Origin: a virus
Taxonomy: Duplodnaviria > Heunggongvirae > Uroviricota > Caudoviricetes
Reading direction: 5' to 3' (one strand)
DNA: 10,629 nucleotides
Virus record (IMG/VR): IMGVR_UViG_2531839127_000027
The notes beneath the pieces are model-generated. The model was not told the origin of the DNA and made no database searches. It saw only the letters and a list, made by a program, of their open reading frames with translations. Position 1 is the stretch's first letter; the number at the start of each line of letters is the position of its first letter. Below are positions 1 through 10,065 of the stretch, in pieces. A program made the translations under genes and the position numbers.

Positions 1-69
1 TCACAAAAACGTAACCACACTGCCAATAGCCAGAGAAATATAATTTTTTTTGCGATTTTTTAGAACTGA

Positions 70-129
70 CACAACGTGAAACAACGAGACACCACGACGA
101 ACAACGGCGAACAATCTGGAACAAACTTG
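70..129. repeat. Six direct repeats with exact 10-bp phasing, core ACAAC (ACAAC/ACCAC/ACAAT/ACAAA); candidate protein-binding array
   Basis: Read directly: cores at 71, 81, 91, 101, 111, 121. About 280 bp upstream of alpA. Confidence 0.5.
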
Positions 130-340
130 ATTAACATCTGACTGACACCCTAAAAAGTTGATTTTCAGTCGTTTTACTGGCTTTTTGTACATTGGCGAAT
201 CACTCTTAAAAACATGTAAAAAAGGCGTAAAAACAGAATTTTATGCCTTTGCACCACAATGAATTAAAAGAGTTTTTATTCTCATTACCACACTTCTGTA
301 AAATGACCGCCGCCAGTGTTTGCCATTCCATAAACACCCT

Positions 341-380
341 GACACAATCCGACGCACCACAACACAATAGGACACCAAAT
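341..380. repeat. Four direct 10-bp-phased repeats (gACACAAnnn) immediately upstream of the alpA ribosome-binding site
   Basis: Read directly: gacacaatcc / gacgcaccac / aacacaatag / gacaccaaat at 341, 351, 361, 371. Core resembles the 70-129 array. Confidence 0.45.
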
Positions 381-410
381 AACTCTTTAAGAAATATCAA
401 AGGGGGAATT

Positions 411-599
411 GTGTTAAGCACAGATCGCTTTATACGTGAAAAAGAATGTCAGCAACTTACAGGCCTGAGCCGTTCATGTCGGTACCGCCTGGAAAAAACC
501 GGACAATTCCCATCACGGCGTAAGCTCGGCGGTCGTTCCGTTGGCTGGTCTTTATCCGAAGTTCTGGCATGGAAGGAAAGCTGCGAGGCAGTTCACTAA
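411..599 (+). CDS. alpA: AlpA/Vis-family phage transcriptional regulator / excisionase-like protein (63 aa from GTG 411)
   Basis: Translation ...DRFIREKECQQLTGLSRSCRYRLEKTGQFPSRRKLGGRSVGWSLSEVLAWKE matches the AlpA family HTH pattern. GTG at 411 follows AGGGGGAA with 4-nt spacing. The listed ORF runs from 243, but the upstream 56 codons look like non-coding leader. Confidence 0.8.
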   Translation: MLSTDRFIREKECQQLTGLSRSCRYRLEKTGQFPSRRKLGGRSVGWSLSEVLAWKESCEAVH

Positions 600-1013
600 T
601 CAGGCTGGCGGCACACAGCCGCCACCCATCCACTAATACAGAGATCTAACCATGAATACTGGATATTCTCCCGAACAAGGGCGGGGCTTCGTTCGTCCTG
701 AAAAACAGAATCTGCAAAATTTTGCCGAAATTATTCCGGTTATTTCCGGCCTTACTGGCGGGAGTGAAACCAATATTGTTAACGCCAGAGCGTTGCAGAT
801 GTTTGATGATAAAAAGGGAGTAAATTTAACTTACACCCCTGACGGCAATCAGAATATGAGCATTATCTCTGAGTCAGGTTTCTACAAACTAATAAAAACA
901 AAAAGCGCCCCGTTGCCGGAGCGCCTTTGTGAACAATTAACCTACTGCGCAAAAAATGAATCTGAGCAGTGGGATTATATCAACCGTGTGGCGAAGCGCC
1001 ACAATTGCCGGAT

Positions 1014-1048
1014 AACAGGCAAAACAAAGGCCACCCGCTACGGTGGCC
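1014..1048 (-). terminator. Candidate rho-independent terminator on the minus strand
   Basis: Perfect 7-bp stem GGCCACC (1029-1035) / GGTGGCC (1042-1048) with 6-nt loop. On the minus strand it is followed by a T-rich tract (complement of aacaggcaaaacaaa, 1014-1028). Confidence 0.35.
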
Positions 1049-1127
1049 CCTCGACACAAGCTACACGTTATCCCCAACGCATGAGCATCACCAACAATGC
1101 CACATTTGCGGCTGGTGGGCAATGTGA

Positions 1128-1316
1128 TCAGTCAGATTTGGTTCGTTCCAAGGTTTGCAACGAGAGCTTTTTCCTGTGCTCTTTAAGGAATTTCTCAAGA
1201 GCAAAAGCACATGGCGCGAATCTTTCTGATTCATGCTCTATCTTTCTGCGCCGTCTTTTCCGTGCCGGTGATAATGTTTTGGTCAATTCTTTATCGGTCA
1301 TTGTGTTGTCCTGCAT
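1128..1316 (-). CDS. Possible small basic protein (about 57-62 aa), downstream of the repressor candidate on the minus strand
   Basis: ORF MQDNTMTDKELTKTLSPARKRRRRKIEHESERF...; internal Met (MTDKEL) has an AGGA 8 nt upstream. Hydrophilic, plausible composition. No recognisable family. Confidence 0.25.
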   Translation of the reverse strand: MQDNTMTDKELTKTLSPARKRRRRKIEHESERFAPCAFALEKFLKEHRKKLSLQTLERTKSD

Positions 1317-1358
1317 AGCAATGCGCCGTAATACCTTACACCACGGCGCTGATGGTGA

Positions 1359-1664
1359 TTACTCTGGTTCTTTGGTCTTGCGACGCTGGAGTTCTTCGCG
1401 TGCAACGGTGACAAGCTGCCCGATTTCTTCCGCTGCTTTGATGCCGATTTGTTCGACCTTAGCCAGGGCATCCAGTGACGACACAAGGGGATTTTCTCCG
1501 CTGCCTTCTGCTTGGCGGCGGGCTATTTCTCCGCGCATGGCGGTTACGATAAATCCGGCATTGCTTTCGCCGTCCAGCTTAACGGATTCCATCCCTTGCA
1601 TAACATCTAGTGGGACTCTGACAGTTGTCAGTTGTGATTTTGCGTTTTTGTTAGCCGTTGCCAT
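1359..1664 (-). CDS. Putative ribbon-helix-helix (CopG/Arc-like) transcriptional repressor, 101 aa
   Basis: ATG at 1664 preceded on the minus strand by GGAG with 8-nt spacing. N-terminus QLTTVRVPLDVMQGMESVKL...SNAGFIVTAMRGEIARRQ fits a beta-strand/helix/helix RHH pattern. Divergent from the replication operon across an operator-bearing promoter region. Confidence 0.55.
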   Translation of the reverse strand: MATANKNAKSQLTTVRVPLDVMQGMESVKLDGESNAGFIVTAMRGEIARRQAEGSGENPLVSSLDALAKVEQIGIKAAEEIGQLVTVAREELQRRKTKEPE

Positions 1665-1685
1665 TTCTGAAACTCCTAATCATCG

Positions 1686-1763
1686 GTGTGTTTCAGTATA
1701 CACAAAAAAAGAAATACAAAAAGCCTTGACGTGTGTTTCATGCGCTCATAACATGAAACACAC
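1686..1763. promoter_or_regulatory. Operator region: perfect 12-bp inverted repeat GTGTGTTTCATG (1731-1742) / CATGAAACACAC (1752-1763) plus a third half-site GTGTGTTTCA (1686-1695)
   Basis: Read directly. The inverted repeat overlaps the spacer and -10 of the rightward promoter. The third half-site lies 45 bp upstream, next to a TATACT -10-like hexamer on the minus strand (complement of 1695-1700). Confidence 0.55.
1726..1754 (+). promoter_or_regulatory. Candidate sigma70 promoter for the rightward replication operon (TTGACG, 17-bp spacer, TAACAT)
   Basis: TTGACG at 1726-1731 and TAACAT at 1749-1754; about 100 bp upstream of the first operon ORF. Confidence 0.45.
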
Positions 1764-1861
1764 CAAAAGAATTGTTGAAATACAAAGAGCAACGCCCCGC
1801 AGTGCCGGAAACACATACGGGGCGTCTAACCACCAACGATAGCAAGATTATCGAGGCTGCT

Positions 1862-9332: not shown

Positions 9333-9823
9333 AAAAAAGACGGTATTTAAATCGGGTGGTGTTTAATACCCCCAGGGGGATAGAAATCCCTACACCTCAT
9401 TGCTTATGGGACCGCCCGCCTACCCTTGTTCACATCGCCGCAGGTTCGAAAACTTTTTTTGGGAAGGTGTGCACGGGATTGATAGATGAGGTCTATCTAT
9501 AAAAAATCACAAAATCCGCGCCATTGCTGGATCCGCCAAAAATCCCCCACCTTACGGCAGACAAAGAAAACGCGAATTATGGGCCTGTTGCAGAGAAAAA
9601 AGGTCTCACTAGTTTTGCGCACCCTAGCATCGAGGTTCGTCAGCCTCCCATCAGCAACCAGATAACTAATCTCGCTGGTGGGCATGATGCCGATATGGGG
9701 ACTTCCATAACGGTTTATCCGTGATCATCCACCAGCTTCATGGCGGATAGCCGGAAAATGATAACGGTATAGCCCGTCGCTTGTGTCTATTTGTTCCGCA
9801 TTGTTGCATACAGTGCACCGAAC

Positions 9824-9847
9824 GGTGTAGTTAATGGTGTAGTTAAT
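9824..9847. repeat. Perfect tandem duplication of the 12-mer GGTGTAGTTAAT in the region upstream of the Smr gene
   Basis: Read directly (9824-9835 and 9836-9847). Confidence 0.4.
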
Positions 9848-10065
9848 TTGCGATTTTTAACGTTATTTGCAGCGATATTTGTTGGTTAAATTCAATAAGT
9901 TATGCGCATTTAATTATAAATATCGTGAATGAATAATCATGCATAAGCATTTTGCTTAAAATATCGGCAATATTTGGAACTTATTACTGGAATTTTGGGT
10001 AATACGTTGTTGGACCGACCCGGTCTGGTTATCATATCGCGCTCTTAATTGCGGGAGGATGTAAC

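Follow-up and report, generated by a model that had tools for sequence, protein, structure and literature searches.

Phased ACAA repeats upstream of alpA and in both attachment-site arms of an E. coli satellite island: candidate operator sites for AlpA

The region between the integrase gene and alpA of a capsid-forming satellite of E. coli, of the phage-inducible chromosomal island (PICI) type, contains six direct repeats with an ACAA core that follow one another at one helical turn (array 1). This array is real, selected and phased, and is one of three in the island, the other two being situated in the arms of the attachment site. The arrays are non-random, are selected for their core and their phase, and are independent of the N-terminal variant of the integrase (Int) and of the replication module with which they are found. 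By elimination and by analogy with known systems, array 1 is most likely an operator of AlpA, and the ACAA repeats as a whole are probably the sites at which AlpA acts as a recombination directionality factor (RDF), an explanation that may be given a probability of roughly 0.55. AlpA is the putative binder throughout, and the effects of its binding proposed below for each site are likewise putative.

The stretch of DNA that was analysed (the window, 10,629 bp; Table 1) is an IMG/VR provirus contig, entered as locus L026 in the comparison set. It is inserted between abgR and smrA of E. coli, near-identical copies (99.9%) are known, and the full island is 11,294 bp long (locus L002). Its int-alpA module shares approximately 89% identity with the module of EcCICFT073, the reference PICI of Gram-negative bacteria. 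The last part of a tyrosine integrase gene, whose product carries an Arm-DNA-bind_3 N-terminal domain in related loci, is followed by a 367-bp intergenic region, alpA, a variable zone, and then genes for a D5-type primase, SSB, a ClpP-protease/major-capsid fusion and a DUF1441 protein. The int-alpA module, including the array, is 100% identical over window positions 1-700 in the island of strain clone D i14, which possesses a RepA-family helicase in place of the D5-type primase. Because the identical module is accompanied by a different replication module, no island proteins other than Int and AlpA accompany the arrays in every case. Immediately after alpA there is a 396-aa open reading frame (652-1842, plus strand) that has no Pfam match, is unannotated in the RefSeq copies, and is overlapped by an annotated YlcI/YnfO gene on the minus strand (1359-1664). 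Homologs have antA/AntB-type or Icd-like genes at this position, and their varying gene content indicates a variable zone of the Bro type.

Table 1. Coordinates of the features discussed (window positions unless locus L002, the full island, is named)
Feature	Position	Strand	Description
3' end of tyrosine integrase gene	1..43	+	TAA stop at 41-43; annotated by RefSeq in identical copies
Array 1	68..130	+	six direct repeats, unit G-R-A-ACAA-Y-n-n; candidate AlpA operator
Predicted sigma-70 alpA promoter	320..348	+	-35 TTGCCA (320-325), 17-bp spacer, TG-extended -10 CACAAT (343-348)
Array 2	341..380	+	-10 element and A/C-rich 5' leader; no conserved phased array
alpA	411..599	+	62 aa, GTG start; Phage_AlpA family winged helix-turn-helix protein
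P-arm array	9781..9810	-	three units, 10-bp step; TTGT (+) at 9781, 9791 and 9801 = ACAA (-)
Doubled 12-bp motif, GGTGTAGTTAAT twice	9824..9847	+	inferred Int arm-type sites
attR copy of att core AATATCGTGA	9919..9928		right end of island; direct repeat at both ends
P'-arm array	L002 4726-4765		four to five units, 10-bp step; just upstream of int

The six phased repeats at 70-129 described in the original prediction, which had been made from the letters of the window, were confirmed. The cores are ACAAC at 71, 81 and 101, ACCAC at 91, ACAAT at 111 and ACAAA at 121, separated in all six units by exactly 10 bp, and Tandem Repeats Finder reports a period of 10 at 68-114. Runs of ACAAC with at most one mismatch and a 10-bp step were counted in dinucleotide-preserving shuffles: the longest had three units in 300 shuffles of the whole window, four in 2000 of the intergenic region, and four in 5000 of the local sequence (60-140). 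Not one of the 7300 shuffles contained a run of more than four units, versus six in array 1. The array is also conserved in homologous islands, a check that had been proposed together with the prediction. The region upstream of alpA was gathered from 83 loci in E. coli genomes and IMG/VR, giving 67 distinct sequences, and array 1 is kept at five or six units in 64 of 66 distinct intergenic regions; the other two have three units on truncated contigs, and every region that is long enough carries five or six. Copy number differs only by whole 10-bp units, one variant having gained exactly one. The logo of 44 distinct units reads G-R-A-A-C-A-A-Y-n-n, with about 2 bits at each position of ACAA and 0.1-0.3 bits at the last three positions (the 3' spacer). 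In the two groups that could be aligned, variable columns number 3 of 44 in the core and 39 of 66 elsewhere (Fisher p = 8.5e-9). Since the core is fixed and the spacers drift, selection acts on four bases and their phase and not on the whole sequence, as expected where protein contacts recur.

The region does not code for protein: the 10-bp unit gains in array 1 and the 5-bp indels in array 2 break the overlapping open reading frames (1-192 on the minus strand and 243-599 on the plus strand). No RNA structure is predicted for array 1 (fold z-score +0.38), and the region has no Rfam match at E <= 1. The distribution of the array beyond the island family was approached in several ways. A collection-wide scan for four phased ACAA units proved non-specific, many unrelated contigs being among the matches listed, and a search of genome contigs for AlpA found three loci, two of them distant and without arrays. 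No ACAA array is present between int and alpA where the AlpA homolog is 57-68% identical; these loci have an extra open reading frame between the two genes or a different repeat, and some retain two or three TGTT units near the doubled motif described below. Neither phased repeats nor an ACAA array could be found between attL, intA and alpA of CP4-57 in K-12. In one island with a 57% identical AlpA (L095), the DNA downstream of int (1405-1500) has another repeat phased at 10 bp, in the order GTCAGGACCG, TTTAGGATAG, GTCAGGACCG, GTCAGGAATT and then TCTAATCAAAGCT twice, also scored as four copies of GTCAGGACCG; the layout is analogous to that of array 1 with a different core.

A second array of four repeats had been predicted at 341-380, such that two arrays would flank the alpA promoter. 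The four 10-mers (at 341, 351, 361 and 371) are present as described, but ACAA occurs in only two of them (at 344 and 364, a distance of 20 bp), another ACAA (359-362) does not keep the phase, and nothing comparable to the conserved array 1 is found there. Runs of at least four of some 5-mer appeared in 15 of 200 shuffles of the intergenic region. Among homologs, the first ACAAT of array 2 is invariant and the remainder is variable, with 5- and 10-bp indels, the second unit being ACAA in about half of the variants. The pattern TTGCCA-N18-ACAAT is found in all 23 distinct variants of the promoter stretch, and the transcription start of alpA is predicted at about 355. Array 2 is mainly the -10 element of this predicted promoter followed by an unstructured, variable A/C-rich leader and not a second operator array. 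In some variants, at most two units of the form GAC-ACAA-Y, one at the -10 element and one close to +1, are similar to those of array 1, and one or two AlpA-like units at these places are possible. The flanking arrangement likewise does not hold: array 2 overlaps the promoter and the 5' untranslated region, and array 1 is approximately 195-250 bp upstream of the -35 element of the only promoter that was detected by the scan. A second promoter just downstream of array 1 (around 127-156), seen by eye, was rejected for its poor -10 element and the negative result of the scan.

The ends of the island were fixed by reconstruction of the empty site. The left flank up to AATATCGTGA, joined to the right flank, gives a sequence of 318 bp that is contiguous in island-free E. 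coli (e.g. H94-H97), with 318 of 318 bases at 100% identity; places that cover at least 80% of this query were found in 3850 genomes. Because the empty site fixes the island ends, both arm arrays belong to the island itself and occupy the P and P' arms of attP. The TTGT repeats directly precede each copy of the doubled motif, with a gap of 2-13 bp. The P' units are cTTGTtccaa, cTTGTtccac, gTTGTacccc and cTTGTgcaat, and on the other strand the arm units include GGAACAAG, GACACAA and GCAACAA, which correspond to the array 1 unit in opposite orientation. In the 11,294-bp island, exact runs of at least three ACAA or TTGT at a 10-bp step occur only in the P' arm, in array 1 and in the P arm, and 999 of 1000 shuffles of the island contain no such run; at periods of 7-9 or 11-14, the island has no run of at least three. 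Homologs, including islands of group B (see below), keep the arm arrays with altered spacers. Single sites in the orientation of the arm arrays, TTGTTGG (window 9879-9885) and TTGTTCA (L002 4683-4689), flank the att core at distances of about 34-42 bp and may be additional low-order sites for the same protein. A resemblance of the arrays to lambda Xis sites (GTTGT) was considered and dropped, as the base before TTGT is not conserved.

The doubled 12-bp motif differs from the ACAA arrays in what it co-varies with. The full island has a 26-bp direct repeat that consists of GGTGTAGTTAAT twice, near the int ATG and near the right end. The copy outside the window (L002 4767-4792) is 22 bp upstream of the int ATG, and the distances from the att core to the centres of the two copies are about 88 bp on the upstream and 144 bp on the downstream side. 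The N-terminus of Int, its arm-binding region, exists in two variants over approximately 45 residues. Islands with variant A have GGTGTAGTTAAT twice in both arms; those with variant B have GGTGTAGTCACT twice in P' and GGTGTAGTCACT plus GGTGTAGTCATT in P. Thus all four half-sites change from GTTAAT to GTCACT or GTCATT when the N-terminal ~45 aa of Int change, and a recombinant Int (L082), in which a B-type N-terminus is joined to an A-like body, is accompanied by the B motif. The ACAA arrays and the DNA-binding region of AlpA are unchanged between A and B islands. Because the four half-sites change in concert with the Int N-terminal domain, the doubled motif may be taken as the Int arm-type site, and because the ACAA arrays do not co-vary with it, they would belong to another protein. 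The arm-binding domain of Int therefore seems to read the doubled motif and not ACAA, which speaks against the suggestion, also made in the original prediction, that the repeats are recombinase arm-type sites. A doubled arm motif has been reported as absent from PICIs other than helper-embedded ones, and its binder was left open (PMC10111431); here such a motif occurs in a PICI of the ordinary or capsid-forming kind and, on the strength of this co-variation, can be attributed to Int. In a metagenomic contig of 11,098 bp (L097, IMGVR_UViG_3300045988_152974), the P-arm segment is present at both ends, at positions 15 and 10994, which points to a group B island in circular (excised) or tandem form.

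AlpA of the island matches Pfam family PF05930 (E = 2.7e-18) and is invariant across the island family. Its AlphaFold model (pLDDT 87) is most similar to the GIsul2 excisionase 8c3t (TM 0.83), of which no published description was found, and next to RdfS, with weaker matches to TorI, Pukovnik Xis and BldC; lambda Xis was not among the matches of the fold search. AlpA is thus predicted to have a winged-helix fold of the excisionase type. Induction and transfer of EcCICFT073 require alpA, expression of alpA alone leads to int-dependent excision and replication, and a PalpA-lacZ fusion is activated by AlpA (PMC6092414). The primers of this fusion (supplementary table, PMC6092414) map to the equivalent of window positions 11-469, arrays 1 and 2 included. 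A Pint-lacZ fusion is unchanged by over-expression of AlpA (PMC6092414) and contains the P' array according to primer mapping, which implies that AlpA, if bound there, has no measurable effect on int transcription in that assay. In PICMIs, AlpA behaves as an excisionase (PMC10803314). No mapped AlpA operator in a PICI was found in the literature searched. The excisionase-type interpretation that had been offered for array 1 is strengthened by the presence of the motif in both attP arms, by the predicted fold of AlpA, and by the activation in EcCICFT073.

As operator sites, the G-R-A-ACAA-Y units would each receive one AlpA protomer, arranged head-to-tail at one per helical turn, and the protomers may form a short cooperative filament that bends the DNA. 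Such filaments would be built on three units in the P arm, on four to five in the P' arm, and on five to six, in opposite orientation, in array 1. The arm filaments, next to the paired Int sites, would give the excisive intasome its shape. The filament on array 1 would bring about the positive autoregulation of alpA that was measured in EcCICFT073, and hence that of the operon starting at the alpA promoter; it might reach this promoter by looping, perhaps with the aid of the phased A-tracts at 208-242, or else act on an undetected start site nearer the array. The proposal that one-turn phasing reflects cooperative binding of winged-helix proteins to the same face of the DNA is retained by analogy for array 1 and abandoned for array 2. 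RDFs as a class bind tandem repeats one turn apart; both att and a promoter are bound by 186 Apl and P2 Cox (PMC7498355) and by RdfS (PMC11963761). The attributes of an RDF array that are found in the island are one-turn direct repeats, sites in the attP arms beside the Int arm sites, and a gene for a small winged-helix protein; the need for that protein in excision is taken from the work on EcCICFT073 (PMC6092414). Counting against AlpA, a distance of about 195-250 bp upstream is more than would be expected of a simple activator, it is unusual for an RDF to have sites in both att arms, and the more distant loci, with AlpA homologs at 57-68% identity or in CP4-57, lack the array.

Binding of the arrays by a protein from outside the island, such as a host tandem-repeat binder of the OmpR/PhoB winged-helix type or a product of the helper phage that switches on alpA, for instance its excisionase, is the main rival explanation, though an unlikely one. 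The units GAAACA and TGTTT presumably resemble half-sites of OmpR and PhoP, but the step of the arrays is 10 bp and that of PhoP or PhoB boxes is 11 bp. Host accessory factors normally have sites in att arms; the arrays, however, are confined to the int-alpA family of this island. Helper phages induce alpA transcription independently of the SOS response (PMC6092414, PMC11773190), in EcCIMP1 also independently of AlpA, and cross-talk between PICI AlpA and helper Xis excisionases has been reported (PMC11773190). Against a helper product, phages as unlike as lambda and phi80 both induce, and in a non-lysogen the expression of AlpA alone is sufficient for int-dependent excision (PMC6092414), so that the excision sites need no helper protein. 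A related role for array 1 alone, as receiver of the helper-phage signal that induces Gram-negative PICIs, is speculative and decidedly improbable: an excisionase-type protein of the helper, made upon prophage induction, would bind the ACAA repeats and fire the alpA promoter, after which the repeats would pass to AlpA, for positive feedback and, in the att arms, for excision.

The repeats could also be a second class of Int binding sites, additional to the doubled motif, since Int accompanies the arrays in every case, arm-type sites may follow one another at approximately 10-11 bp, and the arrays are present in both attP arms and adjoin that motif. This is rather improbable, given that the N-terminal variants of Int co-vary with the doubled motif while the ACAA arrays stay the same, and that array 1 is about 1.4 kb from the att core, downstream of int, inverted, and without a doubled motif nearby. 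Intrinsically curved or anisotropically flexible DNA that requires no dedicated protein is very unlikely. CA/TG steps are flexible, and the bending of any element repeated once per turn adds up; but the strict conservation of four bases points to base readout rather than bend alone, and the curvature for which a gel assay had been suggested is not predicted by a wedge model. The parameters of the model, and hence its values, are approximate: the end-to-end distance of array 1 is 0.981 of its contour length (33rd-35th percentile of the window) and that of the P-arm array is close to this, against 0.77 for an A-tract control. Hardly any weight can be given to array 1 as a replication element, that is, iterons or a crr-like site for the primase-helicase of the island. 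The P4 alpha protein binds arrays of short repeats, and T-rich DNA (44-62) is found just upstream of array 1. The identical array, however, occurs with two unrelated replication modules, that of the D5-type primase and that of the RepA-family helicase, which rules out iterons, and apart from the att arms no similar array exists near the primase gene or elsewhere in the island.

Assignment of the arrays to AlpA places them beside several known systems, from each of which they differ. 186 Apl binds direct repeats 10-11 bp apart, with five sites at att and seven at the promoter region, and does so cooperatively, bending the DNA (PMC7498355). The island resembles 186 Apl and P2 Cox in having arrays at att and a further array, of five to six units, before the gene of the regulator itself. 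In contrast, Apl and Cox are helix-turn-helix proteins unrelated to AlpA in sequence, their promoter arrays are between or over face-to-face promoters and repress them, and array 1 is about 200 bp upstream of the predicted promoter; the effect of AlpA measured in EcCICFT073 is activation. The island also differs from Apl and Cox in having arrays in both att arms, the binding of AlpA itself being putative. At the X1-X1.5-X2 sites of lambda, Xis forms a bending micro-filament of head-to-tail winged-helix protomers, one per turn (PMC7498355), and these sites, like the arm arrays, adjoin Int arm-type sites; but lambda has three sites, in the P arm only, no regulatory array, and site sequences unrelated to those of the island. 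RdfS of ICEMlSymR7A, a winged-helix RDF, binds attP, upstream of intS, as well as its own promoter, and thereby couples excision with expression of rdfS and intS (PMC11963761); it has no consensus motif and uses an extra N-terminal helix for oligomerisation, whereas the island has a sharp ACAA core and strict 10-bp phasing.

Within the Phage_AlpA family itself, to which P4 Vis and the AlpA protein of CP4-57 also belong, Vis is needed for excision of P4 and regulates promoters as well, as cited in PMC6092414, and CP4-57 differs from the island in that no ACAA array is visible. AlpA of Pseudomonas aeruginosa shares the name, a predicted winged-helix DNA-binding region, and positive control of downstream genes, and is an antiterminator that is loaded onto RNA polymerase at a single element (ABE, GGGACGN5GGTA) between -35 and -10 (PMC7969949); no ABE-like element was recognized by eye in the variable spacer of the TTGCCA-N17-CACAAT promoter. 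Helper-embedded PICIs have tgTGTATTGCa as a doubled motif that occurs once per attP arm, co-oriented and at fixed distances from the core (PMC10111431). This motif is a tandem of 11-12 bp, as is the doubled GGTGTAGTTAAT, and differs from it in sequence; ACAA arrays beside the doubled motif are not described for helper-embedded PICIs in PMC10111431.

AlpA is the master switch of Gram-negative PICIs, and no mapping of its DNA target or of the layout of their att sites was found in the literature searched. The candidate operator, G-R-A-ACAA-Y every 10 bp at three places in the island, is cheap to test, and together with the doubled motif assigned to Int it suggests how a protein of 62 residues may couple excision to its own induction. 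No new principle is involved, one-turn direct repeats being well known for RDFs that also act as regulators; the interest of the finding is moderate and derives from the fact that the control of PICI induction and excision by AlpA becomes directly testable. The result would guide the engineering of delivery vehicles based on PICIs.

The intergenic region has several other features. Phased A-tracts (A5 at 208-212, A6 at 218-223, A5 at 229-233 and T4 at 239-242) are roughly midway between array 1 and the alpA promoter and, in the wedge model with its approximate parameters, form the most curved 60-bp stretch of the window; strong curvature is found only in the subgroup of islands to which the window belongs. 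Partly overlapping them is a 12-bp inverted repeat, AAAGGCGTAAAA/TTTTATGCCTTT (221-250), which is conserved in homologs and in which G:C has changed there to A:T on both arms. Its RNA folds with -13.2 kcal/mol (z -3.6), and a run of T follows on the minus strand; the repeat may serve as a terminator on that strand or as a palindromic site for a protein. Conserved blocks at 175-212 and 378-395 share AAT(C/A)ACTCTT(T)AA, and a direct repeat (198-221 and 378-401) is 75% identical. The upstream block contains ACTGG(C/T)TTTTT(G/A)TACAT, which is loosely like a LexA-type CTG-N10-CA(T) box; despite this box in block 175-212, induction of alpA is reported to be independent of the SOS response. The GTG start codon of alpA is within a small hairpin, (T/A)GTG-TTAAG-CAC(A/T) (409-423), the outer pair of which changes from T-A to A-T in 4 of 10 variants by way of a synonymous codon change, and a weak CUCU/GGGG pairing (383-406) could mask the ribosome-binding site. 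The hairpin and this pairing suggest translational control of alpA.
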